Position numbers and translations under genes: made by a program. 64,000 nucleotides of DNA from a virus (Duplodnaviria > Heunggongvirae > Uroviricota > Caudoviricetes): the IMG/VR virus record IMGVR_UViG_3300042544_001887; one strand, given 5' to 3'. Numbering within the stretch: position 1 is the stretch's first letter; every line of letters begins with the position of its first letter. Under the pieces are notes generated by a model. That model ran no database searches. It was not told the origin of the DNA and was given only the letters and a program-made list of their open reading frames with translations. Positions 16,476 to 43,955 of this stretch are shown here, piece after piece.

Positions 16476-19400
16476 ATGAGATTAAGAAACCTTTTTGAAG
16501 TACAAGTGCAACCAGGTGAACGCAGAGGATTTTCGCTGCGGTTGAAGCGTCTTGAAGATTTGCAAGTAAAAATTGCAGAAATACAAAATACTATAAGCGA
16601 ACTTGGTAATGTTAGCGTTCCAGAAAACTTAAAAAAACAAATGGAAGATCTTATCGATGCTGCTAAAATAGAAAAAGAAAAAATCTATGCAGAAGTATCT
16701 GACGCAGAAGTAAAAAATCCAAGAATTCAAGGAATACCTGGATCTGTCATGAAGTTACTTAGAGGCATAGAAAAAAATGCTTCAACTATAATGAACGCAT
16801 ACAGAAAAACTGGAAAATATCTCTATAGAGGAATCAAATCTTCCGAAGACGCACTTTATGGAAAACCTTTTGACATCAGAAAAGCCAAGGATAGTAATGT
16901 AGATTTAAGTAATGCATTAAATCAATCCTTAGCAGACCAAGGATTTAATGCTAGAAGAGACAACACTACTTTTACTTCTGGTTCTTATAATCAGGCTAGT
17001 AATTACGGTACTGTGTATATAATATTTCCTAGAGATGGGTTCTCATTCCATTACAGTAAAAAGATAAGAGACCTTGTTTTAGATACCGGCAAGATTGATA
17101 TGTTACTGGATCCCGAAATAACAGGTTATATCGAAAGTGCTATACGTTCTAACTGGAGCAATCTCAAAAACTATTTTTCTTATAAATTTAGTGGAGATAA
17201 ATTCTTTACAGGTTATGAATATCAAAAAGATTTAGATGGGTTACAACGTGCAGTAGCAGACGGTGTGCTTCCACAAGAATTTGCAAAATATAAGACTTTT
17301 TATGATCTAGTTGATCCTGCAAAAGTTATAGCTAATTTTCAATACAATCAAACTGATCTCGACAGTGCTATAACTTCCGAACATGAAGTCATGATTACAG
17401 GACCGTATTATGCTGTTAAAACAGAGTCCTTTCAAGATTATATTGACAAATATATTAAAATGACAGCAAATGGTGAATTTGATGTCACTCCAGATAACAA
17501 AAAAGAAAAAACTACTTTAAATCAAAAAATACAATCTATAGTAGGCGGTTCCGCGCCTGAGTTTGCAATAGGAGATTGGGTGCAGCATAAGTACGAAGGA
17601 TTTAAAGGTGAAGTTGTTGACTATTACCATACCAATGACTTTGTTCAAATTAAAGATTATGCCGGAAAACTAAAATTAGTCAATAAGAAAAATATTGATA
17701 AAATTAAAACTCCTGAGATGCCCGACTACCAGCCCGGCGATAAAGTTTATCTAAGAACAAAAGACACAGAATGGGAATATTATAATAATAAAAAATACAA
17801 GGTAGTAGACTCTGATAAGTTTACCGTAACAGTTCAAAAAGGCAGTTACGACACCACAATTACATTACCTAAATTGTTAACCGAACCTGCTCCTAAATTT
17901 GATACCAAAGATCCAAGTGTAGGAGACACAGTTCATGTTACCAAGGGCGATTTTGAAAACATGTACGGAACTATTACATATGTTTCTAGTTACAGTAAAG
18001 ATATTGATGTTGACTTCGGAGACAGCGATTCGCACACTGTTCAAAAAGGATCTTACGAAGTTATTGATCCTGCAACAAAACCTGCAGATGCAAACTCTAT
18101 TGCATCAAAGTTTAAAGAAGGTGATTACGTTAGAATCTCTGACGACGGGTTTGATTACAGTGGTCTTGTAGCGGTAATTAATAAACCTGGTTTATCAAAA
18201 TCAAGAGTATATCCGTTCGGCGAAAAAAGTTATGCTTTAAGTATAAAAAATTCTAGATTAAAAGCTATTGATGAAGATGAATTTAAAAAACAATCGTTTA
18301 GCATAACAGATCAAGTAGTTGTATCTGGCGGCAAGCATGATGGAAAGAGTGGAAAACTTAATTATGTAAGCTTTGATGGAACTATGGAAATAGTTGTCAG
18401 TAGTGGTAACACCATAGAAGTACCCGGAAAATATGTTTTTAATCAAAACGTAAATGGTTCTCCTGAAAATAACGAGAATAAAGAAACAATTAAAAAAGGT
18501 GATTTTGTAAAAATCTCAGACGACTCGGACTTGTTCCCAGGTTCTGTAGCAAAAGTAGTTGTAAAGAATTCCGGCGAAAAATCTACAATATTAGTAAACA
18601 ACGACAACAATCTCGATTATATTATTGATACAAAATATCTAACCAAGATTGATGAAAATGAATTTAACAATAAAAAGCTGTCAACCGGCGACGAAGTCAA
18701 TGTCACAGACGGATATTATAAAGGAAAAACTGGAAAAATAAAATCGTTTGGGACTGATGGTCCTGTAAGAGTTGATATAACTTCGCCGTCCACAGGGGAT
18801 ACATTTACAATTAAGGTACTTCCACAATACTTGGAAAAAATAAATCAAAGCAGTGACGACTTAATTGATTTAATGGATCTTGAGTTTGAACCGATGGACG
18901 AGCCTACTGATTTTAAAAATAATGAAACTAAAAAATTTAAAGTCGGCGACAGCGTAAAAGTAATTAATGGTAAACACAAAGGAAAAACTGGAAAAATAAA
19001 TTACCTATATACGTATACAAAAGAAGCGTATGTTGACTTCGACGGTGAATATCACGACATTGAGTTAAAAGACTTAGAGTTAGACAAAGAAGAATCAAAA
19101 ACTGATAGCAATTTTAACAAAGACGAATTAAAAAAGCTAATCAGTCAAGGAAAAGAAAAAGGTTTTATAACCTATAATCAACTAAACGATGTAGTGCCTT
19201 CGGACAAAGTTACTTCTGAAGAAATTGAAGATATAATGGATATGTTAAATGAATTAGGAATCAATTTAGTTGATGCTGAAAAAGACTCGGCTCCATCAGG
19301 TGAAACTCCACAGGAATTACAAGCAAGAATAAACGATCCAGATACAAAAGCGTTCCTTAAACAAGCATTTGCAGATCCTGATGTAAAAGAACTAGTGAGT

Positions 19401-35105: not shown

Positions 35106-35240
35106 ATGAACACGAAAGTTTTAAGAGACTATAAGGCACTACTAAAAGACTACAACGAAGGCAAAATTAGTTACAAAGAATTTGTTGATCAAACACTTCC
35201 GCTGTGGAATAAATTAAACAACTTGTTCGAAAAAGATTAA
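35106..35240 (+). CDS. small hypothetical protein (44 aa)
   Basis: ATG 9 nt after the terminator 3' arm (TAGGAGGG) which doubles as RBS. Confidence 0.35.
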   Translation: MNTKVLRDYKALLKDYNEGKISYKEFVDQTLPLWNKLNNLFEKD

Positions 35241-35248
35241 AAAAGCAG

Positions 35249-35277
35249 TTGACATAGAGTAAAACATACACTATATT
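35249..35277 (+). promoter_or_regulatory. strong sigma70 consensus promoter (tRNA operon)
   Basis: TTGACA-N17-TATATT. Confidence 0.6.
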
Positions 35278-35316
35278 AACTAAACAAACAAAAAATAAAA
35301 CGTAACGCAAGTTACA

Positions 35317-35329
35317 CGCTCTTTGACAA
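35317..35329 (+). promoter_or_regulatory. boxA-like antitermination element
   Basis: CGCTCTTTGACAA vs E. coli rrn boxA TGCTCTTTAACAA. Confidence 0.45.
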
Positions 35330-35414
35330 TTTAGATTTGTTGTTTACATCGTAAGATGTAGTAAACAACGCTCACTTAGACGCAAGTCGATAATAGTGGG
35401 GGTAAGTAGAGAAT

Positions 35415-35466
35415 GACTCTACTTACACGTATTAACTGGTAGCTGGTTCGATTCCGGCGTAGAGTC
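35415..35466 (+). ncRNA. truncated tRNA-like hairpin RNA
   Basis: 7-bp acceptor-like stem gactcta/tagagtc plus ctgg-ttcgatt-ccgg T-arm, no D/anticodon arms. Confidence 0.25.
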
Positions 35467-35823
35467 TAGGTGACTATGAAAGGTTTGATTCCTTTGTACT
35501 ACTGGTGTAGCAAATTGGACGACAGTCCGCCAAGTTAGTACGTGTAAGTAGAGTCGAGCAATTGAATTATTCGATGCTGTGAAGTATTTCTAACAGCATT
35601 TGATGATTGTGCCATGTGGTAAAAAGATTGCTTACAGCTAGAAAAAAGCTGACTACAATAATACACGGTAATAGAAAAGACCAAATCTTTTTTAACATCG
35701 TGTATTTATAGAAAAAACTAGTGCAGGAGGATAACTCTGTAAGTCACAAGAACAACGGTGCCGCATGACTCAATTGCGGTTAAATTACCCGAGTAGTGCC
35801 GGGCAGAGCCAAACACACAATGT

Positions 35824-35899
35824 TCCTCGTTAGCTCAGTTGGTAGAGTATTTGACTGTTAATCAAAGTGTCGCTGGTTCGAGCCCAGCACGAGGAGCCA
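35824..35899 (+). tRNA. tRNA-Asn (GTT)
   Basis: acceptor tcctcgt/acgagga, loop ctGTTaa, CCA. Confidence 0.7.
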
Positions 35900-35966
35900 A
35901 AATTGAGAAGGGGATAAACACGGCAGTCTCATTGCGTAGCAACGGTGCCCTTTCTTTTAGAATAAT

Positions 35967-36043
35967 GCATCGGTATAGCTCAGCTGGTAGAGCAGCGGTC
36001 TCCAAAACCGCGTGTCCTGGGTTCGAATCCTAGTGCCGGTGCC
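35967..36043 (+). tRNA. tRNA-Trp (CCA)
   Basis: acceptor gcatcgg/ccggtgc, loop ctCCAaa, T-loop gttcgaatc; 3' CCA not encoded. Confidence 0.6.
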
Positions 36044-36051
36044 AAAAATAC

Positions 36052-36143
36052 GGATTGATGGGTGAGAGGCTTAAACCAGCAGATTGCTAATCTGTCGTAC
36101 CTTGTAAAGGGTACCGAGGGTTCGAATCCCTCTCGATCCGCCA
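36052..36143 (+). tRNA. tRNA-Ser (GCT), type II
   Basis: acceptor ggattga/tcgatcc, loop ttGCTaa, long variable arm, T-loop ttcgaat, CCA. Confidence 0.65.
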
Positions 36144-36154
36144 GAATAAGATAC

Positions 36155-36229
36155 GGGCTGTTGGTATAGTTGGGAACACAGTAGCTTTGCAAGCTTCAAT
36201 CACCGGTTCGAACCCGGTACGGTCCACCA
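36155..36229 (+). tRNA. tRNA-Ala (TGC)
   Basis: acceptor gggctgt/acggtcc with G3-U70 Ala identity pair, loop ttTGCaa, T-loop ttcgaac, CCA. Confidence 0.65.
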
Positions 36230-36236
36230 AAATAAT

Positions 36237-36280
36237 GCGGGATTAACTCAGTGGTAGATAAATACTTTAAATAGGAGATA
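36237..36280 (+). pseudogene. tRNA 5'-half remnant (duplicate of tRNA-Val 5' end)
   Basis: gcgggattaactcagtggtaga mirrors 5' end of tRNA at 36693; 3' half replaced by HNH gene RBS and ORF. Confidence 0.4.
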
Positions 36281-36288
36281 CTCTACCA

Positions 36289-36702
36289 ATGGCTAAAACG
36301 TTCAACTGTTTAAATTGTAGTAAAGAAAGTAAATGGAGTTATAGCAGCACTAACAAGTATTGCAGCGGCGATTGCTTTCAAGAACACAAATGGAAAACTG
36401 TAAAAAAACTTGAAGTAGAAGCAGGGTTAGTCAATGACGGAAGCCCTGCGTTAAAAAAATACCTTGTTGAAACAAAAGGTGAATGCTGTGAAGAGTGCAA
36501 AGTTGGCACTGTTTACAACGGAAAGCCATTAACACTAACTGTTGATCATATTGATGGTAATAGTGATAATAACTTTCCAGGCAACCTTAGACTTTTATGT
36601 CCTAATTGTCACAGTCAAACTGAAACATACAAAGGACGAAACAAAAAGAATAGTGCTCGTTCTCGATATATGAGAAAGTATAGAGATAATTTGCGGAATT
36701 AG
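36289..36702 (+). CDS. HNH homing endonuclease
   Basis: CxxC...CEECK...HIDGNSDNNFPGNLRLLCPNCH HNH motif; AGGAG RBS; embedded in tRNA cluster. Confidence 0.8.
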   Translation: MAKTFNCLNCSKESKWSYSSTNKYCSGDCFQEHKWKTVKKLEVEAGLVNDGSPALKKYLVETKGECCEECKVGTVYNGKPLTLTVDHIDGNSDNNFPGNLRLLCPNCHSQTETYKGRNKKNSARSRYMRKYRDNLRN

Positions 36703-36767
36703 CTCAGTGGTAGAGCAGGGGTTTTACACACCTCAGGCCGGGAGTTCGACCCTCTCATTCCGCACCA
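36693..36767 (+). tRNA. tRNA-Val (TAC)
   Basis: acceptor gcggaat/attccgc, loop ttTACac, T-loop ttcgacc, CCA; 5' end overlaps HNH stop. Confidence 0.7.
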
Positions 36768-36769
36768 AG

Positions 36770-36871
36770 TTTAGACTGGATATAATCACCCCTTGTGAGG
36801 GTGGCCCAAGGACTCAGTAACGAGATACAGCGAAGGGTTGTTGGTCAAGGCTGCAAACAGCCCAGTCTAAA
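36770..36871 (+). ncRNA. structured spacer RNA closed by 10-bp stem (tttagactgg/ccagtctaaa)
   Basis: perfect long-range stem with internal hairpins (cacccttgtgagggtg, ggctgcaaacagcc). Confidence 0.35.
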
Positions 36872-36878
36872 GCAATAC

Positions 36879-36967
36879 GGACACTTGGCAGAGATGGATT
36901 ATTGCACCGGTCTTGAAAACCGACGAACCGCAAGGTTCCCAGGGTTCGAATCCCTGAGTGTCCGCCA
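36879..36967 (+). tRNA. tRNA-Ser (TGA), type II
   Basis: acceptor ggacact/agtgtcc, loop ctTGAaa, long variable arm, T-loop ttcgaat, CCA. Confidence 0.65.
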
Positions 36968-37043
36968 TAAGCACACTAGCATCAGGCTAGTCCAGACCGT
37001 AAGGTTAACGGTGACAAGCGGGGAGAGACCCGCACAAAAATAC

Positions 37044-37120
37044 GGCCTGTTAGTCGAGTGGTTTAAGATGCCTGCCTGTCACGCAGGAGATGATGGGTTC
37101 AATTCCCATACAGGTCGCCA
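37044..37120 (+). tRNA. tRNA-Asp (GTC)
   Basis: acceptor ggcctgt/acaggtc, stem cctgc/gcagg loop ctGTCac, T-loop ttcaatt, CCA. Confidence 0.7.
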
Positions 37121-37135
37121 AATTGAAAGGAAGGC

Positions 37136-37233
37136 TCATAGTTTACGTTTAGCCCGTTACGACGGTTTGGGCGGAAAATGGTTGAGTCACGGCACGGGCG
37201 GGTCGGGGGCTGCGTGACGGCATTGAACTATGA
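37136..37233 (+). ncRNA. structured spacer RNA closed by 8-bp stem (tcatagtt/aactatga)
   Basis: long-range stem plus GC-rich hairpin gtcacg...cgtgac. Confidence 0.3.
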
Positions 37234-37272
37234 AGCAGTTGTCGGTCTGCGTTAACAAACACCGTCAAAATT

Positions 37273-37346
37273 GCGGGTATGGTGTAGCGGTAACATGCGA
37301 GCCTTCCAAGCTCTTGTCACGAGTTCGAATCTCGTTACCCGCTCCA
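37273..37346 (+). tRNA. tRNA-Gly (TCC)
   Basis: acceptor gcgggta/tacccgc, loop ctTCCaa, T-loop ttcgaat, CCA. Confidence 0.7.
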
Positions 37347-37371
37347 ATTTATCCGTATGTGAGAGGACAAT

Positions 37372-37638
37372 ATGAAAACAGAAGATGAAAAGAGAGAATT
37401 TTACGAGCGTTGCTCCTCTATGTTAGGAATAGCTCACGTTTACAACACGCCAGTTCCACGACGCAATAGATGGAACGCAAGACGACTGGGCAACGGACGT
37501 TATCCAGGATTTGGACTAATACAGTGCTACGGAAACGGAGCAAGAGTAGTTAGTCGACAAGGAACACGTATGTTTTATACATACGAAGCAGTTTATGAAT
37601 ATTTGCAGATTGTGCTTGACGCAACTGCAAAAGCGTAG
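37372..37638 (+). CDS. hypothetical protein inside tRNA cluster
   Basis: 88 aa, GAGAGGACAATATG RBS. Confidence 0.45.
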   Translation: MKTEDEKREFYERCSSMLGIAHVYNTPVPRRNRWNARRLGNGRYPGFGLIQCYGNGARVVSRQGTRMFYTYEAVYEYLQIVLDATAKA

Positions 37639-37653
37639 TATAAAAACTATAAC

Positions 37654-37729
37654 GCCCTTATAGCTCAGCTGGTAGAGCATCTGATTTGTAATCAGAGGGT
37701 CGGCGGTTCAAGTCCGTCTGGGGGCACCA
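37654..37729 (+). tRNA. tRNA-Thr (TGT)
   Basis: acceptor gccctta/tgggggc, stem tctga/tcaga loop ttTGTaa, T-loop ttcaagt, CCA. Confidence 0.7.
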
Positions 37730-37736
37730 AAATTAT

Positions 37737-37812
37737 GTCGCGTTAGCAAAAGGTTAATGCGTGTCCTGTGCAAAGGACAAGGACGGTGGTTAAACTCCCC
37801 GACGCGACTCCA
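37737..37812 (+). ncRNA. atypical tRNA-like gene (perfect acceptor+CCA, 8-nt anticodon-position loop, degenerate T-arm)
   Basis: acceptor gtcgcgt/acgcgac, D-stem gca/tgc, stem tgtcc/ggaca with loop tgtgcaaa, no TTC T-loop. Confidence 0.35.
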
Positions 37813-37818
37813 AATAAT

Positions 37819-37900
37819 GCGGATGTGGTGTAATGGTAGCCACGCTGGTCTTAGAAGCCAGTGCGTAAGCGTGAGAGTTCGAGTCTCTCCATCCGCACCA
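37819..37900 (+). tRNA. tRNA-Leu (TAG), type II
   Basis: acceptor gcggatg/catccgc, loop ctTAGaa, long variable arm, T-loop ttcgagt, CCA. Confidence 0.7.
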
Positions 37901-37944
37901 AAATATTTCTTATCTTAAAAAGTTTTAAATTTAGAAAGATTAAC

Positions 37945-38388
37945 ATGCAATTTTATGAAAAAGTAACTTTTTTACCAAGCATTCCAGAAGGTTTAATAAA
38001 ACCTTTAGATATAATCGAATCGATGCCGAATGTTTTTCCAGATCCGGATTACGCTCATACTTATGCCAGCTATAAGGCAAATGACGATTTACAAGCTTGG
38101 GCACAAAGTTATTTTGACTTTCCTGTACTTGCAAGATATCAGGTGATTAAACAACAATTGCCTATTCATGTTGACGTTGGAATTGTAGGAATAAAATATA
38201 ACTACCTTATTAGCAGGGGTGGTGACGATGTAAAAACAAGATGGTGGGATAGTGTAGAAAATCCTTCAAAAATACTTTTTGAAACTACTTCGCCATTACG
38301 TGTGTGGCACAGCTTAAACATCGAAGTGCCACACGATATAACAGAAATTAGTTATCCTAGAATTAGTGTAACTATAAGAAAAAAATAG
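37945..38388 (+). CDS. hypothetical protein
   Basis: first ATG after tRNA-Leu; track ORF start overlaps the tRNA. Confidence 0.4.
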   Translation: MQFYEKVTFLPSIPEGLIKPLDIIESMPNVFPDPDYAHTYASYKANDDLQAWAQSYFDFPVLARYQVIKQQLPIHVDVGIVGIKYNYLISRGGDDVKTRWWDSVENPSKILFETTSPLRVWHSLNIEVPHDITEISYPRISVTIRKK

Positions 38389-38416
38389 TAATAACTTTTT
38401 TAAAGAAAAATACTGT

Positions 38417-38492
38417 TGGGAAGTAGCTCAATTGGTAGAGTAGCGGACTTTGAATCCGTTGGTTGGTGGTTCGAATCCACCCTTCCCAGCCA
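38417..38492 (+). tRNA. tRNA-Gln (TTG)
   Basis: U1-A72 acceptor tgggaag/cttccca, loop ctTTGaa, T-arm ggtgg-ttcgaat-ccacc, CCA. Confidence 0.7.
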
Positions 38493-38498
38493 AGATAT

Positions 38499-38575
38499 CG
38501 GAGTATAGCACAGCCTGGTAGTGCGATGGTTTTGGGTACCATAGGTCGAGGGTTCGAATCCTTCTACTCCGACCA
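38499..38575 (+). tRNA. tRNA-Pro (TGG)
   Basis: C1-G72 acceptor cggagta/tactccg, stem atggt/accat loop ttTGGgt, T-loop ttcgaat, CCA. Confidence 0.7.
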
Positions 38576-38792
38576 CGATTAAACTGTTGATCTAACCTCG
38601 GACTCGAACAAATAGCCATAGGCTTAGGCAGGTAGTACGGCGGATTAGTGTTAGACAACATTCGGACCAAGTAATCCGTGAGGTCCAGCTATTAGTGATG
38701 GCGGGGACGAACAAGCGGCTGATTTGGTATCAGTCGTGAGGCGGTAAGCTGCACCATAGGTGTCGTAGGCCGGGACTTGTTCAATTTATTAT

Positions 38793-38870
38793 CTGGGTAT
38801 AGCTCAGTCTGTGAAGAGTGCTCGCCTTGGAAGCGAGAGGTCGCTGGTTCAAATCCAGTTACCCAGACCA
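38793..38870 (+). tRNA. tRNA with TGG-type anticodon loop (second Pro-like, identity uncertain)
   Basis: acceptor ctgggta/tacccag, stem ctcgc/gcgag loop ctTGGaa, T-loop ttcaaat, CCA. Confidence 0.5.
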
Positions 38871-38877
38871 AAATAAC

Positions 38878-38952
38878 GCGGTGTTGGACAAGATGGATTG
38901 TCAGAGGATTCTAAACCTTAGTAGGCAGGATCGTTACCTGTACGCCGCACCA
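38878..38952 (+). ncRNA. 75-nt tRNA-like gene with candidate CUA (amber-reading) anticodon and swapped A54/U58 T-loop
   Basis: perfect cloverleaf spacing 7/2/4/8/4/1/5/7/5/4/5/7/5/7+A+CCA; acceptor gcggtgt/acgccgc, D-arm gaca/tgtc, T-stem gcagg/cctgt loop atcgtta; anticodon stem weak (3 of 5 bp), loop ttCTAaa. Confidence 0.3.
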
Positions 38953-39065
38953 ATACACACATATGATGCCGTAGCCCGACGCTGGTATGTGTGAAACCTA
39001 AATATCGGGCATGTAATTTAATAAAGGAAAGAAAAATGTCGTAGATTGAATATGCTTGTAAAGAT

Positions 39066-39602
39066 GTGGTGTTCCACTTTAACAAAAAACACTTGGAAGA
39101 TGAAACTATTCCGATGTGGGTGATTAAGTTTCGAGGCGAAACCTATTATGTAAATCATGTCGAATGTAGTGTTCCGTGGAGTACAAAAGAAACGCCTGAT
39201 AACAATCACACTAAAGGCAGTATCAAAGTCAAGGATTGTTTAGTTATTATTGATGATGAGAACTGTGCTAACATTCGTGTGTTAACTCCAGCAGATCGTT
39301 TGCGTCTTACTAAAGAACAAACTGTAAGAGTTATTACCGAGCAAGGAGCAAAACTGCGTACTGCACTACAGAACATGGCACATGGTCCGATTAAGTTAGC
39401 AGGTGGAGGATGTGGCACTACTTGGTATATCACAGATATTCCCAGTAAGAAACATTTAACAATACTACAACTACAGATTCCTTATATTAGGCAATTGATG
39501 CCCAATGAGGATTATTACAAGAAATATGATCAAACATCTTCAGATACTGAATGGTTAGATGATGATGACGACTACGAGTGGGAAGACCTTTATGAAAATT
39601 GA
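39066..39602 (+). CDS. hypothetical protein
   Basis: 178 aa. Confidence 0.45.
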   Translation: MVFHFNKKHLEDETIPMWVIKFRGETYYVNHVECSVPWSTKETPDNNHTKGSIKVKDCLVIIDDENCANIRVLTPADRLRLTKEQTVRVITEQGAKLRTALQNMAHGPIKLAGGGCGTTWYITDIPSKKHLTILQLQIPYIRQLMPNEDYYKKYDQTSSDTEWLDDDDDYEWEDLYEN

Positions 39603-39771
39603 AGTGCCTCACTCGTTACTAAAAGAAGTCTGTGCTACAATTCGTCAATTCAAATTAAGGCACGGGCCATTCTACAAACTGTTAAATAGCTATAGGATAT
39701 ATTTGTATCCAAGTAGTAAATTAAGTTTGTTTTTGATTAAACATTCTAGCACTGTTACAGTGCTAGAATAA
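39592..39771 (+). CDS. small hypothetical protein (59 aa)
   Basis: ATG overlapping upstream stop. Confidence 0.3.
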   Translation: MKIEVPHSLLKEVCATIRQFKLRHGPFYKLLNSYRIYLYPSSKLSLFLIKHSSTVTVLE

Positions 39772-39772
39772 T

Positions 39773-39847
39773 GCGGGCGTAGCTCAGGGGTAGAGCGTCA
39801 CCTTGCCAAGGTGAATGTCGTGGGTTCGAATCCCATCGCCCGCTCCA
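39773..39847 (+). tRNA. tRNA-Gly (GCC)
   Basis: acceptor gcgggcg/cgcccgc, stem tcacc/ggtga loop ttGCCaa, T-loop ttcgaat, CCA; preceded by 10-bp hairpin 39745-39768. Confidence 0.7.
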
Positions 39848-39865
39848 ATTGTTGAAAGATATTGT

Positions 39866-40447
39866 ATGAGTAAAATAGAGCACTTTTATCATCTTCCGCA
39901 CTTCGAAGAAGAATGGTTTACATATTCGGCTTTATATTCTGATATGGTAGCTAAATTTCCATCCGGAAGTAAGTTTGTTGAAGTCGGTTGTTGGAAGGGA
40001 AGATCTGCTGCTTATATGTGTGTAGAAATTGCTAATTCAAAAAAAGACATTGATTTTTATTGTGTTGACTTTTGGCATGTATCAGCAGAGCATGAAATAG
40101 AAGAACCCCATCTAAAAAATTTGTATGAAATTTTTCTTTCTAATATGAAACCAGTTGAAGCTTTTTATAAGCCAATGAAAATACCGTCGTCTGATGCTGC
40201 AAAAAAATTTAAAGACGAAAGTTTAGATTTTGTTTTTATTGATGCTGGACATCAATACGATGAAGTAAAAGATGATATTCTTGCATGGTATCCAAAAATT
40301 AAAAAAGGTGGCATACTAGCAGGACATGATTTTTATCCAACTGAGCCAACTTGGGGAGATGTTTCTAAAGTAGTAAACGAACTTTTTCCAAATAATTATG
40401 AAGTTTTAATAGAACAAAGTTGCTTTCTAGTAAATAAGCCGGTATAG
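39866..40447 (+). CDS. class I SAM-dependent methyltransferase (CmcI/TylF-like)
   Basis: VEVGCWKGRSAAYM motif I-like, FIDAGHQYDEV, GGILAGHDF; stop overlaps next tRNA. Confidence 0.5.
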   Translation: MSKIEHFYHLPHFEEEWFTYSALYSDMVAKFPSGSKFVEVGCWKGRSAAYMCVEIANSKKDIDFYCVDFWHVSAEHEIEEPHLKNLYEIFLSNMKPVEAFYKPMKIPSSDAAKKFKDESLDFVFIDAGHQYDEVKDDILAWYPKIKKGGILAGHDFYPTEPTWGDVSKVVNELFPNNYEVLIEQSCFLVNKPV

Positions 40448-40511
40448 CTGAGTGGTTTAGCAGCTGATTAGTAATCAGCTGACGGGAGTTCGATTCTCTC
40501 TACCGGCACCA
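40438..40511 (+). tRNA. tRNA-Thr-like, apparent anticodon AGT (A34)
   Basis: acceptor gccggta/taccggc, stem gctga/tcagc loop ttAGTaa (part of 10-bp perfect palindrome), T-loop ttcgatt, CCA. Confidence 0.55.
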
Positions 40512-41376: not shown

Positions 41377-42138
41377 ATGAATTATCACATAAAAAACTTT
41401 ATTATCCCTATACATGTCTTATTTTTAGTATCACTAATTGGTATGTATTTAAATATAATCGATTTTCATATTTGGTTATTTTTAATAGGGTGGACTTTGA
41501 TCTATGGGCTAGGTCTTGTTGTAGGATTTCATAAATTGTTATCCCATAGCTCTTTTAAAACAAACAAATACATATCTTATGTGTTAGCTTACTTAGGATG
41601 CTTAGGAATTAGCGGATCACCTATATGGTGGGCTGCTATACATAGAGGACATCATCATGCTCATACTGAGACTGAAAAAGACCTTCAAAGTCCACGTCGT
41701 GGATGGCTTACATCTTACATAGGTTGGCAGTTTGGTGAAGAAACAAGTAAAATAAGTTTAAAGTATGCATCTGATTTAATAAAAGATCCTTTTTATCTTT
41801 TTTTACACAAGAATTATAGATTAGTTGTTTGGAGTACAGTGATTATTGTTGGTATGTTGTCACCATCTGTTGCAGTTTCATTATTAATATTTCCGATGAT
41901 TGCAGCACACCATGGAGAAAATATTACCAATTCATTTGGTCATAGCAGGTTTGCTGGTTACAGAAATTTTAATACCAACGACGACACTATAAATAACCCA
42001 TTGTTAGCATTTATAACTTGGGGTCAGCTTTTGCATAACAATCATCATGCTAAGCCAAATAACGATAGTTTTGCCATTAAATGGTTTGAATTTGATCCAA
42101 CTTCTCCTTTTGTATGGATTTTAAAAAAACTAAAATAG
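41377..42138 (+). CDS. membrane fatty-acid desaturase (stearoyl-CoA desaturase-like)
   Basis: three His boxes HKLLSH, HRGHHHAH, HNNHHAKP plus TM helices. Confidence 0.75.
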   Translation: MNYHIKNFIIPIHVLFLVSLIGMYLNIIDFHIWLFLIGWTLIYGLGLVVGFHKLLSHSSFKTNKYISYVLAYLGCLGISGSPIWWAAIHRGHHHAHTETEKDLQSPRRGWLTSYIGWQFGEETSKISLKYASDLIKDPFYLFLHKNYRLVVWSTVIIVGMLSPSVAVSLLIFPMIAAHHGENITNSFGHSRFAGYRNFNTNDDTINNPLLAFITWGQLLHNNHHAKPNNDSFAIKWFEFDPTSPFVWILKKLK

Positions 42139-42195
42139 TTACAATATAAACATTTTTCTGTAACAGAAAAAAAATAAAAAAGTTGAAAAAAGTGG

Positions 42196-42224
42196 TTGAC
42201 CTTTGAGGCAACATGCACTATATT
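42196..42224 (+). promoter_or_regulatory. strong sigma70 consensus promoter
   Basis: TTGACC-N17-TATATT. Confidence 0.6.
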
Positions 42225-42255
42225 AACTACATAAGCAGCAAATGTGTTGCTTACA

Positions 42256-42268
42256 CGCTCTTTGAAAA
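42256..42268 (+). promoter_or_regulatory. boxA-like antitermination element
   Basis: CGCTCTTTGAAAA; same 22-nt leader as at 35308-35334. Confidence 0.45.
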
Positions 42269-42269
42269 T

Positions 42270-43370
42270 TTAGTAACTTAACTGCAATAATCAACAGTTT
42301 AGCGAAAGGCTAAAGATTGTGGTTGTGCTGAGTAATTAACAGTTTAAATCAGCAAGTGATGCGTGATTAGGTAAACTGTTGTTTATTGCAGTTTTTAAGA
42401 TGGGCGGCTTAGCGTCCACGTAAGGGTAAGTGCGGTAACGCACCCAAAGGCAGGTTTCCTATAAACTGCCGCCAGCAATGGTCCACCTAAGCAAGCCTGA
42501 ACTAAGGTTGACTCGGTTTAACCCGAAAGCAACCTCCGTCCTTAGGCGGGCGGTAGGCAGTAAGTTAGAGTTGTAGTCCGAAAGGATAGGCACAGAGCCG
42601 GTCGGTGAGTGCTAAGAGGCTGTGGTGGCTGAACTGCAACATACCAAACTAACGAATGCTGAAGGTTAACAGGTAGCTACACTGTCTGAGCCCGCAAGCA
42701 AAGGCATGGTAGCATCACAAGAGTGGAAGGGTTAGGCCCCGGATACTTGAAGTGACGTTGAGTAGCTCGCAAGGCAAAAGACAGTCGGTGTGTTGTATAC
42801 TGTATCTAACAAGGTATGGTGCAACTGGGACAGCACATCGAAGTAGGTTCGCAATATTGCATAACGGTAATGCAATCGTCTTATGAAACGATGGATTGTA
42901 GGTTCAACTCCTACTATTGAAACAAAAGCGAAAGACTGTCCCGGTACGTTGTGAAAGGTGGTTAATGCCACACTCGCAAGAGAATGTGGTCTACGGATGC
43001 TCGCAAGGCTGATGTAGTTGTTCGGAAAGATAGCGTAAGGGTTTAGCGACTCTGAACTGCTCGCAAGGCAGACGAAGGATAGAAGGACGAGTAGCAACGT
43101 GCGACGAGAGAAACGCCACTCTCCAAAAAAGGCACCACTGGGAGATACAGGATGACCGTAAAAGGCTTCTGTGGATAACGAGAGAACGTGGCTCGCAAGG
43201 CTAACGGTAATGCTCAAAGGCTCCTAACGCAAGGCATAATCTCAGCCTATGCAAAAGTTTAAGTTTTAACTAACTTAACTTGTTGAACAGTTTTCGAGTT
43301 CCGACCCACTTGGAAGTAGGCGACTACTCCATTTCCGAGACTGTTCAACTAGTTAAGTTTCTACTTTAAA
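42270..43370 (+). ncRNA. large structured non-coding RNA candidate (about 1.1 kb, ORF-free, GNRA-rich)
   Basis: no credible ORF on either strand; seven cgcaag motifs, four as GCTCGCAAGGC; many local and long-range stems; lies between boxA leader and tRNAs. Confidence 0.4.
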
Positions 43371-43371
43371 C

Positions 43372-43456
43372 AATACACAAGGCGTAGGCCACGCCGATGT
43401 TATGGTAACAGGTTTGCCTTGTGGCAGGCTCGGTGGTTCGATTCCACAGTGTATTG
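43372..43456 (+). ncRNA. tRNA-like RNA (acceptor, D-arm and T-arm present; anticodon arm aberrant)
   Basis: acceptor aatacac/gtgtatt, D-stem ggcg/cgcc, T-loop ttcgatt; no CCA. Confidence 0.3.
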
Positions 43457-43472
43457 TTTAAAATAGAATTAT

Positions 43473-43548
43473 TGCGGGGTAGAGAAGCGGCATCTCGTTT
43501 GGCTCATAACCAAAAGATCGTGGGTTCGAGTCCCACCCATCGCAACCA
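43473..43548 (+). tRNA. tRNA-Met/fMet-like (CAT)
   Basis: D-stem gaga/tctc, stem tttgg/ccaaa loop ctCATaa, T-arm gtggg-ttcgagt-cccac, 3' end cgcaacca like initiator tRNA; acceptor pairing imperfect. Confidence 0.55.
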
Positions 43549-43708
43549 AAATTTAGCTTAAGCTAAAATTTATATTATTTAAAGAAGTGAGATTTAAAAA
43601 CATTCTAGTTCTCACTATAGGCGTAAAAAGAAACACATAGTTGTTTGAAGGCAGCTGGGCCCGTTAAAGTTGTACTAGACAAATGCTGATGCCATCTTTA
43701 AATAATTT

Positions 43709-43792
43709 GCCCTAGTGGTGTAATGGTAGCCACGGAAGACTCAAAATCTTTTGCCGCAAGGCGTGGGGGTTCAAGTCCCTCCTGGGGCACCA
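43709..43792 (+). tRNA. tRNA-Leu (CAA), type II
   Basis: acceptor gccctag/ctggggc, loop ctCAAaa, long variable arm, T-loop ttcaagt, CCA. Confidence 0.7.
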
Positions 43793-43801
43793 ATTCTTTA
43801 T

Positions 43802-43885
43802 GCCCGCTTGGTGAAATTGGTAGCCGCGGCAGACTTAAAATTTGTTTCCTCTGGAGTGCCGGTTCGAGTCCGGCAGCGGGCACCA
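43802..43885 (+). tRNA. tRNA-Leu (TAA), type II
   Basis: acceptor gcccgct/agcgggc, loop ctTAAaa, long variable arm, T-loop ttcgagt, CCA. Confidence 0.7.
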
Positions 43886-43899
43886 ATAAAAAACAATCA

Positions 43900-43924
43900 A
43901 AAGGCACCCTAGGGTGCCTTTTCT
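43900..43924 (+). terminator. intrinsic terminator
   Basis: ggcaccc-ta-gggtgcc stem then TTTTCT. Confidence 0.6.
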
Positions 43925-43925
43925 C

Positions 43926-43955
43926 TTGACTAGGACTTGCAAACTGTTATACTAT
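43926..43955 (+). promoter_or_regulatory. sigma70-like promoter
   Basis: TTGACT-N18-TGtTATACT. Confidence 0.4.

Follow-up and report, generated by a model that had tools for sequence, protein, structure and literature searches.

Introduction

GOLLD RNAs are among the largest non-coding RNAs of bacteria and phages, and their structure has been solved. The family is said to have been described by Weinberg and colleagues in 2009. GOLLD RNAs are more than 800 nt long and have a conserved 3' domain, the 5' domain being less conserved; they assemble as a 14-mer nanocage, and their expression goes up in phage lysis (PMC12286853). Nested tRNAs are a known feature of the family (PMC12286853, PMC6582537). 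Here we analyse a GOLLD locus within a 64,000-nucleotide stretch of the IMG/VR virus record IMGVR_UViG_3300042544_001887 (Caudoviricetes), referred to as the window throughout, together with the leader that precedes it, which consists of a predicted promoter, a small hairpin and a sequence resembling the boxA element of ribosomal RNA (rrn) operon leaders. By sequence comparison, this boxA leader is conserved over GOLLD- and tRNA-carrying phages of at least two host phyla, and we consider it probable that it is an rrn-type boxA leader working through the host Nus factors.

The closest described systems are found in bacterial genomes and in phage lambda. In Escherichia coli rrnB (NC_000913.3), the P2 promoter (TTGACT-17-TATTAT) is followed by the boxB hairpin and then by cACT-GCTCTTTAACAATTTAtcag, with 37 nt separating the -10 element from boxA. 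The gammaproteobacterial boxA consensus is GYTCTTTAANA (PMC5725501). Crystal structures of NusB-NusE define a sequence-independent double-stranded RNA (dsRNA) site beside the 5' end of boxA (PMC3177189). In CRISPR arrays of Proteobacteria, Bacteroidetes and Cyanobacteria, boxA is located between the promoter and the long untranslated array (Stringer et al. 2020, PMC7665894), the rationale being that untranslated RNA is shielded from Rho, as has been shown experimentally (PMC7665894). Lambda nut sites have the order boxA (CGCUCUUA), spacer, boxB, require the N protein and control mRNA operons.

Results

Two copies of a promoter, hairpin and boxA module

The module ahead of GOLLD (module 2, 42160-42273, plus strand) starts with an A-rich tract 5' of the -35 element (aaaaaaaataaaaaagttgaaaaaagtgg, 42160-42195), which may act as an UP element; such tracts are found upstream of most sigma-70-type modules in IMG/VR viral contigs. 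A predicted sigma-70-type promoter, TTGACC-17-TATATT (42196-42224), matches 10 of 12 consensus positions and would place the transcription start near 42231. Two other contigs (L041 and L043) have a near-identical promoter ahead of GOLLD. The start of the transcript is predicted to fold into a boxB-like hairpin of 9 bp with an AAUG loop (42232-42253), and a boxA-like core, GCTCTTTGAAAA (42257-42268), begins 3 nt further on, embedded in the conserved 23-mer TTACACGCTCTTTGAAAATTTAG (42251-42273). This boxA is in the sense orientation, at about +26 to +34 relative to the putative start, and agrees with the gammaproteobacterial consensus GYTCTTTAANA at 10 of 11 positions.

Module 1 has the same anatomy on the same strand, with a promoter TTGACA-17-TATATT (35249-35277, 11 of 12 consensus positions), a hairpin GUAAC-GCAA-GUUAC (35302-35315) ending 2 nt before boxA, and a boxA-like core GCTCTTTGACAA (35318-35329) within the 23-mer TTACACGCTCTTTGACAATTTAG (35312-35334). 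The latter has a single mismatch (A to C) against module 2 and is its only other copy in the 64 kb when both strands are searched with up to three mismatches; none of 100 shuffled sequences contained a match, and thus no copy is expected by chance. Both modules have the A-rich tract before the -35 element, the string GTTGAC and 14 identical bases over the -10 region (CACTATATTAACTA), and their small hairpins differ. The gap from the -10 element to boxA is 32 and 40 nt in the two modules, and the pattern common to them is a hairpin followed by CAC-GCTCTTTGA(A/C)AATTTAG. The shorter 9-mer G[CT]TCTTT[AG]A has three matches in 128 kb (the window, both strands), two of them in the modules. An earlier note on this DNA had reported the second promoter and leader copy with its one mismatch, and the leader alignment and the window-wide search confirm it. 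The note had put the shared block at 22 nt and 35308-35334, where a copy indeed lies, the shared extent being 23 nt at 35312-35334; it had located module 2 correctly as well, with an end (42196-42270) that cuts off the last 3 nt of the leader, which runs to 42273.

Four other intergenic sigma-70 promoters in the window (31074, 43926, 46428 and 47676) precede protein genes with short Shine-Dalgarno leaders, and no boxA was found at any of them. Within the window, the leader is confined to the two promoters that head the tRNA-array and GOLLD units. The leader might instead be a decoy, an abundant RNA that would titrate host NusB-NusE and so lower host rRNA synthesis and ribosome assembly. Although strong A-tract promoters, at least two copies per genome and the increase of GOLLD expression in phage lysis (PMC12286853) would suit a decoy, such an RNA would not have to sit where long non-coding units begin, as this element does, and the 64 kb hold two copies only. 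We therefore regard a decoy as very unlikely.

The boxA core resembles that of alphaproteobacterial rrn leaders

We compared the modules with the leaders of plasmid- and chromid-borne rrn operons, taking 800 nt upstream of the 16S gene. In these leaders boxA is located 145-250 nt ahead of the 16S gene and reads GCTCTTTGAAAT in Sulfitobacter, GCTCTTTGACAT in Cereibacter, Thioclava and Sphingobium, GTTCTTTGACAA in Azospirillum, GCTCTTTAACAA in Vibrio, GTTCTTTAACAA in Ralstonia, and GTTCTTTGAAT in Fulvitalea and Prevotella, which belong to the Bacteroidota. The Thalassospira leader has GTTCTTTGACAT. Judged by this set, the GCTCTTTGA(A/C)AA of the window is therefore of the alphaproteobacterial type. 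The 12-mer of module 2 differs from that of Sulfitobacter in the last position only, and the window boxA agrees with the rrn boxA of Sulfitobacter, Cereibacter and Sphingobium at 11 of 12 positions. E. coli, Vibrio and Ralstonia rrn leaders likewise have boxB ahead of boxA.

A second leader motif consists of [CT]TAG, a short hairpin and CGAT(G/A)AT(A/G), and about 18 phage leaders have it 24-63 nt downstream of boxA; its carriers include L012, L015, L023-L025, L028, L033, L057, L059, L061, L065 and L115. The Sulfitobacter, Cereibacter and Thioclava rrn leaders (L156, L157, L167) contain the same motif 80-86 nt downstream of boxA. Its hairpin stems covary, and 21 of the 39 unique matches in 2.77 Mb are located downstream of a boxA. 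Module 1 contains a copy (TTAGACGCAAGTCGATAATA, 35376-35395), and module 2 a loose relative only (TTTAGCGAAAGGCTAAAGATTGTGG, 42303-42327). In the boxC region, some 20-30 nt after boxA, rrn leaders read (A)TGTGGGC or ATGCGGGCGG. In the window, GATGGGCGGCTTAG is found at 42398, where the GOLLD core starts, 130 nt after boxA and in a single lineage. The start of the core (42398-42412; also L086 and L097), GATGGGCGG(C/T)TTAG, resembles ATG(T/C)GGGCGGTTTGG from the boxC region of Rhodobacterales rrn leaders, a likeness that is seen in one GOLLD lineage and may be coincidental.

The leader recurs ahead of GOLLD and tRNA arrays in other phages

Scanning IMG/VR for the 18-mer CACGCTCTTTGANAATTT yielded 61 loci, about 30 of which have the full architecture of A-rich tract, sigma-70 promoter, hairpin and boxA. 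Nearly all such modules with sufficient downstream sequence are followed by a tRNA array on the same strand, the first tRNA typically lying 40-800 nt after the boxA module (maximum about 2 kb), and GOLLD is found downstream in 7 of the 14 loci tested. The spacing between boxA and GOLLD in L013, L040 and L041 equals that of the window. Related contigs with diverged flanks retain both module types together (L021 with L043, L041, L024, L059, L065). The same 18-mer was matched at 16 loci in a scan of 185,579 genomes, 14 of them by chance and two in phage modules (L065 and L078). The latter two are short contigs from a Phycisphaerales bin (L065) and an Emticicia bin (L078) that contain a phage promoter, hairpin, boxA and tRNA module, and they are probably mis-binned phage fragments.

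Since these matches had been chosen by the motif, GOLLD loci were also gathered by their 3' end alone (GTGGATAA-N35-65-TAATCTCAGCC). This boxA-independent set comprises 76 loci, of which 44 are non-identical and have enough upstream sequence. In the 200-nt bins that start at -1200, -1000 and -800 from the 3' anchor, we counted 6, 15 and 15 sense copies of the 9-mer, compared with 0-4 in each other bin and about 10 antisense copies over 6 kb. At the 5' edge of GOLLD (-1150 to -700) the 9-mer is present in 26 of the 44 loci, where 0.033 per locus would be expected, and in 10 of 24 clusters formed at 85% identity. The boxA reading put forward in the earlier note is thus strongly supported on comparative grounds, by the match to the rrn boxA core, the sense orientation, the adjacent 5' hairpin and the recurrence before GOLLD and tRNA arrays.

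These data also speak to whether the second module is a duplication leftover, or a chance boxA-like string, with no function. The two modules are clearly paralogous, as their identical 14-nt -10 region shows. A functionless leftover is nonetheless hard to credit, given that zero copies are expected by chance, that both modules are retained in related contigs whose flanks have diverged, and that the GOLLD-anchored test reveals an enrichment specific for position and strand.

Among cultured phages, the nearest GOLLDs are all found in phages of Alphaproteobacteria (Ruegeria, Phaeobacter and Sinorhizobium). Over 5-6 kb, the roseophages DSS3_MAL1, MD18 and DSS3P8 each contain hairpin-AC(T)-GCTCTTTGACAATTTGG once only, in the sense orientation and at the head of the tRNA array and GOLLD. 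In DSS3_MAL1 (L152, MN602268.1, 7967-8375), the boxA unit consists of four tRNAs, a GOLLD with a nested tRNA-Arg, and an annotated tmRNA gene. No boxA was found within 2.5 kb of the partial GOLLD match in Sinorhizobium phage Phosso. The boxA type and the nearest cultured GOLLDs together suggest that the window phage has an alphaproteobacterial host.

The boxA variant follows the promoter type and the hairpin varies

Many GOLLD-anchored loci have a promoter of the Bacteroidota type, in which TTG and TAnnTTTG are separated by about 19 nt; downstream of it come a hairpin, for example AUCGGA-AACG-UCCGAU, and then GTTCTTTGAAAA. We counted promoter types and boxA variants over 61 unique modules. Sigma-70-type promoters are combined with GCTCTTT in 33 cases and with GTTCTTT in 5, whereas the Bacteroidota-type promoters (TAnnTTTG) have GCTCTTT in 2 cases and GTTCTTT in 21. 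Thus, GCTCTTTGA pairs with sigma-70 promoters and alphaproteobacterial rrn leaders, and GTTCTTTGA with Bacteroidota-type promoters and Bacteroidota rrn leaders. The promoter varies by host and boxA tracks the rrn boxA of that host, as predicted for a site read by host Nus factors.

It is conceivable that the leader has no dealings with Nus factors and instead directs RNA processing or stability, as an entry point for RNase E, III or P, or is bound by a phage protein; its boxA likeness would then stem from a captured rrn leader. The second rrn motif in module 1 and in many other leaders fits the wholesale capture of an rrn leader, and tRNA arrays and GOLLD do need processing from a precursor. 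The boxA core is, however, the best conserved part of modules in which promoters, hairpins and flanks have diverged, and its variant tracks the rrn boxA of the host clade, as predicted by continued use of a host boxA reader; moreover, the leader-trailer pairing needed for an RNase III stem is unsupported (22 loci, mean z -0.6). A Nus-independent role of the leader thus appears unlikely to us.

Of 112 unique instances, 50 have a hairpin of 5 bp or more whose 3' end lies 1-3 nt ahead of the boxA G, compared with 9% at random positions; the set includes chance matches within genes and related sequences that are not independent, which makes the p-value an indication only. About 40 distinct stems occur, for example GUAAC/GUUAC, UAAGCAGCA/UGUUGCUUA, AUCGGA/UCCGAU, GGAAU/AUUCC and GUAGCAAG/CUUGCUAC. 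Directly preceding boxA, such a helix is in keeping with the dsRNA site of NusB-NusE (PMC3177189).

Side searches revealed further boxA settings. In a second class of contigs, a promoter and two hairpins are followed by CACGCTCTTTGACAATTTAATC, a GGAGG some 10-12 nt later and an ATG, so that the same boxA forms part of the 5' leader of an operon of protein genes (L002, L009, L011, L014, L017, L020, L032, L034, L042, L045, L049, L051, L052, L058). The 15-mer pattern of the E. coli or beta-gamma type, GCTCTTTAACAATTT, has 116 unique matches in IMG/VR, mostly background, with 7 located before tRNA arrays. L206, L217 and L243 are clear cases of promoter, GCTCTTTAACAATTT boxA and tRNA, L217 having TTGACT-17-TATAAT, boxA and a tRNA-Gln 27 nt further on; these cases are anecdotal, with no enrichment. 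In L186, L177 and L232, too, the pattern separates a sigma-70 promoter from a tRNA array.

The phage-borne elements, the use of the same boxA before a protein-coding operon (L002, L009, L011 and others) and the many GNRA-like hairpin loops (GCAA, GAAA, GAAG), which recall lambda boxB, raise the question of a lambda-type nut site, whose boxB hairpin would be bound by an N-like antiterminator of the phage and which would allow read-through of intrinsic terminators as well. In our modules the hairpin precedes boxA with a gap of 1-3 nt, as in rrn leaders and not as in lambda, where boxA, a spacer and a boxB with an N-recognised loop follow one another. Stems and loops vary widely among phages, which is a better fit to a sequence-independent helix site than to a peptide site. 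Profile searches of 27 open reading frames (ORFs) of the window returned no N-like gene, a search that short arginine-rich proteins would escape. Overall, we judge a nut site to be quite unlikely.

The GOLLD unit downstream of module 2

All features of this unit are on the plus strand. The leader is followed by a long hairpin (42280-42393; inverted repeat I1, 27 nt, 89% complementary), identified by folding, which is variable, weakly conserved among relatives and missing in L086 and L097. Alignment to L041, L040, L013 and L035 places the conserved GOLLD core of about 850 nt at 42398-43250, a limit supported by L086 and L097, in which the 5' edge of GOLLD comes after the promoter. The Rfam model of the GOLLD 3' domain (RF02032) matches 42785-43248 over its full length (positions 1-416 of 416) with 191.8 bits (gathering threshold 150, E 1.7e-52). 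The 1.1 kb structured RNA of the earlier note is thus GOLLD, a known family. At 42398-43250 the RNA has the expected size of more than 800 nt and the division into a less conserved 5' and a conserved 3' domain, and its setting is typical as well: phage genes surround it, a tRNA-like gene is nested in it and the window counts 33 tRNAs. Its linker contains this tRNA-like gene (42850-42923), with an 8-nt anticodon loop, reported by ARAGORN as tRNA-??? 'tatg' and scored with 44.8 bits by the Rfam tRNA model. Another tRNA-like gene, in the tRNA array of unit 1 (37737-37812), is called with a 2-base 'anticodon'; both may be pseudo-tRNAs or frameshift-type tRNAs. The full match to the 3' model, the linker tRNA, the tRNA-island setting in a phage and an HNH endonuclease nearby are as in known GOLLDs (PMC6582537). 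The window GOLLD RNA itself shows nothing unusual; what our analysis adds is the conserved transcription leader upstream of it.

GOLLD is followed by a long hairpin (43272-43359; inverted repeat I2, 20 nt, 95% complementary) and a cloverleaf-like element (43359-43468) whose closing stem of about 14 bp encloses four hairpins; this element also has a canonical GGUUCGAUUCC T-loop and repeat I3. Folding of 43249-43472 gave a z-score of -7.0, and neither ARAGORN nor Rfam called the cloverleaf-like element. Genes for tRNA-Met(CAT) (43473-43548), tRNA-Leu(CAA) (43709-43792) and tRNA-Leu(TAA) (43802-43885) come next, as assigned by ARAGORN, and then an intrinsic-terminator-like G+C-rich hairpin AAAAGGCACCCTAGGGTGCCTTTT with a T-run, followed by CTCTT (43899-43925). 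The terminator scan scored the latter on the minus strand; the T-run of this palindrome is present on the plus strand as well. The promoter of a DNA ligase gene (TTGACT-16-TATACT, 43926) lies immediately after it. The order of GOLLD, Met, Leu, Leu and DNA ligase is repeated in L041 and L043.

The longest plus-strand ORF between 42230 and the tRNAs has at most 46 amino acids, and a single ORF of 161 amino acids with a TTG start runs antisense to the structured RNA. The claim of an ORF-free structured RNA followed by tRNA-Met/Leu/Leu is upheld by the ORF, ARAGORN and folding data. No plus-strand promoter or terminator match was found in the scan of 42300-43899, and Rfam at a permissive threshold found only tRNA and GOLLD in 42150-43950. 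On the simplest reading, module 2 would head one transcription unit of about 1.7 kb. A helix of the rrn leader-trailer type (RNase III) was considered and rejected: over 22 loci, duplex energies were no better than those of shuffled sequences (mean z -0.6). The window has a complementarity of 13 nt between leader and trailer (42271-42283 with 43351-43363), with z -1.6.

The tRNA-array unit and the wider window

Module 1 is followed on the plus strand by a structured leader RNA of 490 nt (35335-35823; folding z-score of -7.8 compared with shuffled sequences), in which a stem of about 22 bp (about 35415-35553) surrounds several hairpins, one of them resembling a tRNA T-arm (GCUGGUUCGAUUCCGGC). 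A permissive Rfam search of 35200-35900 (E<=1) identified no family except tRNA, and this leader may be an undescribed structured RNA. The array itself, as called by ARAGORN, occupies 35824-40511 on the plus strand and contains genes for an HNH endonuclease (36289-36702) and a methyltransferase (39815-40447) between its tRNAs. Of the two long non-coding units proposed in the earlier note, the first is thus not purely non-coding.

The window derives from a large phage with 33 tRNAs and genes for NAMPT, an NMNAT-Nudix protein, a T4 Rnl1-type RNA ligase (21523-22680, upstream of the array), UvdE and a fatty acid desaturase (41377-42138), the last ending 58 nt before the module 2 promoter. A megablast of 20 kb of the window against cultured phages gave no match, and a blastn search of the 45-nt leader against cultured phages gave chance matches only, LR756500.1 among them. 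The window thus has no close cultured relative; the largest ORF tested resembles, and only distantly, proteins of two jumbo phages of Rhizobiaceae, Atu_ph07 and Phosso. An identical DNA ligase protein was found on eight metagenome contigs. A protein of 1019 amino acids (16476-19535, plus strand) contains a domain resembling sigma-70 region 1.1 (amino acids 882-943, Pfam E 2e-20; E about 4e-10 to RpoD chains in the PDB), along with several KOW-like repeats; the N-terminal region corresponds to a PHROG of unknown function. The protein may act on the host RNA polymerase; we found no tie between it and the boxA leaders.

Discussion

A probable host-read leader for GOLLD and tRNA arrays

The anatomy of the leader, its recurrence before GOLLD and tRNA arrays and its match to the rrn leaders of the host clades were observed by comparing sequences. 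These findings together suggest that GOLLD and tRNA arrays are made by a hijacked host rRNA transcription machinery. On this model, host sigma-70 RNA polymerase would start near 42231, at a strong promoter preceded by an A-rich tract, and within about 40 nt would transcribe the small hairpin (42232-42253) and boxA (GCUCUUUGAAAA, 42257-42268). In analogy to rrn leaders and to CRISPR arrays headed by boxA (PMC7665894, PMC4807359, PMC5725501), the nascent boxA would bind host NusB-NusE(S10), and the hairpin helix would occupy the dsRNA site beside its 5' end. With NusA, NusG and SuhB, this would produce a fast, pause-resistant and Rho-resistant polymerase tethered to the 5' end of its RNA. The modified enzyme would then cross the untranslated 1.7 kb unit, that is, the leader hairpin, GOLLD with its nested tRNA, the two structured elements and the tRNAs, until transcription ends at the terminator at 43899-43925. 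Module 1 (35249-35334) would play an equivalent role for the long tRNA array. We infer the binding of Nus factors, their effect on elongation, termination or folding, and the continuity of the transcript by analogy with these systems.

Several points weigh against this model. Promoter use, the 5' end and Nus dependence are themselves predictions from the DNA. Position 8 of boxA is G where the E. coli consensus has A, a G that is also present in alphaproteobacterial and Bacteroidota rrn leaders. The alphaproteobacterial rrn leaders that we examined do not have the closely adjacent hairpin of the phage modules, none of the exact 18-mer matches in the 185,579 genomes is a bacterial rrn leader, and an rrn-like leader-trailer helix is not supported at the 22 loci. 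The unit headed by module 1 (35284 onward) is partly coding, with its endonuclease and methyltransferase genes amid the tRNAs. A boxA at the 5' edge of GOLLD is not recognisable in 14 of the 24 GOLLD clusters; their hosts may have a divergent boxA or boxA may be truly absent, and relaxed boxA searches of 17 GOLLD loci that had no match gave scattered weak candidates only. In L086 and L097, members of the window's own GOLLD cluster at 85% identity, a sigma-70 promoter (TTGACA-17-TATAGT) with neither hairpin nor boxA lies within a tRNA array, about 35 nt before the GOLLD core; relative to the GOLLD 3' motif, its location is about -760 to -730. Because these two loci use a promoter without boxA, boxA is not required immediately before GOLLD.

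The benefit to the phage may also be misnamed by the word antitermination. Work cited in PMC5725501 indicates that rRNA is itself Rho-resistant and that Nus factors chiefly aid its folding. GOLLD, rich in G and strongly structured (GC skew +0.07 to +0.25), would thus be a poor substrate for Rho, so that the gain may lie in faster elongation or in co-transcriptional folding. A tentative extension of the model is that the Nus-modified polymerase acts as a co-transcriptional RNA chaperone for GOLLD and tRNA arrays, through tether and speed and not through terminator read-through, with the boxA variant serving as a marker of the host clade. We hold this as a possibility on the less likely side, attractive because the 850-nt GOLLD has to assemble into a 14-mer cage (PMC12286853).

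A conserved rrn-style leader provides a concrete, testable account of GOLLD transcription. If it is correct, control by boxA and Nus factors would reach phage non-coding operons, in addition to rRNA, a few mRNAs and CRISPR arrays, and phages would have a route to rRNA-like tRNA output. The boxA variant and the promoter type together may offer a simple clue to the hosts of uncultured phages. As the leader is present in cultured phages of Ruegeria and Phaeobacter, the hypothesis is testable in tractable hosts.

Comparison with known systems

A literature search found no description of GOLLD with boxA or of boxA with phage tRNA arrays, and an earlier mention is possible; as far as the literature was searched, we are dealing with a known mechanism in a previously undescribed context. 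The window modules are similar to lambda nutL and nutR in combining a phage-borne boxA and hairpin with a putative use of host Nus factors. They differ from these sites in that the hairpin comes first, the full rrn-type core GCUCUUUGA is present and the cargo is mainly non-coding. With the boxA of CRISPR arrays they share the location between a promoter and a long untranslated array, whereas the cargo is tRNAs and GOLLD instead of crRNA repeats, the loci belong to a phage and not to the host, and the function is here proposed by analogy.

Unlike rrn operons, the modules are phage-borne, lead into tRNA arrays and GOLLD instead of rRNA, and have no convincing leader-trailer helix. Their discriminator is AT-rich (TATATTaacta), unlike the GC-rich one of rrn P1, which would make stringent control unlikely. 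The core reads GCTCTTTGA(A/C)AA here, compared with GCTCTTTAACAA in E. coli rrn and GCTCTTTGA(A/C)AT in the leaders of Rhodobacterales and Sphingobium rrn operons, and module 1 shares the second downstream motif with the rrn leaders of Rhodobacterales. As in E. coli rrnB, a sigma-70 promoter is followed by a hairpin and, 1-3 nt on, by boxA, about 30-40 nt after the -10 element, and as in rrn operons the module heads a long structured untranslated RNA that includes tRNAs.

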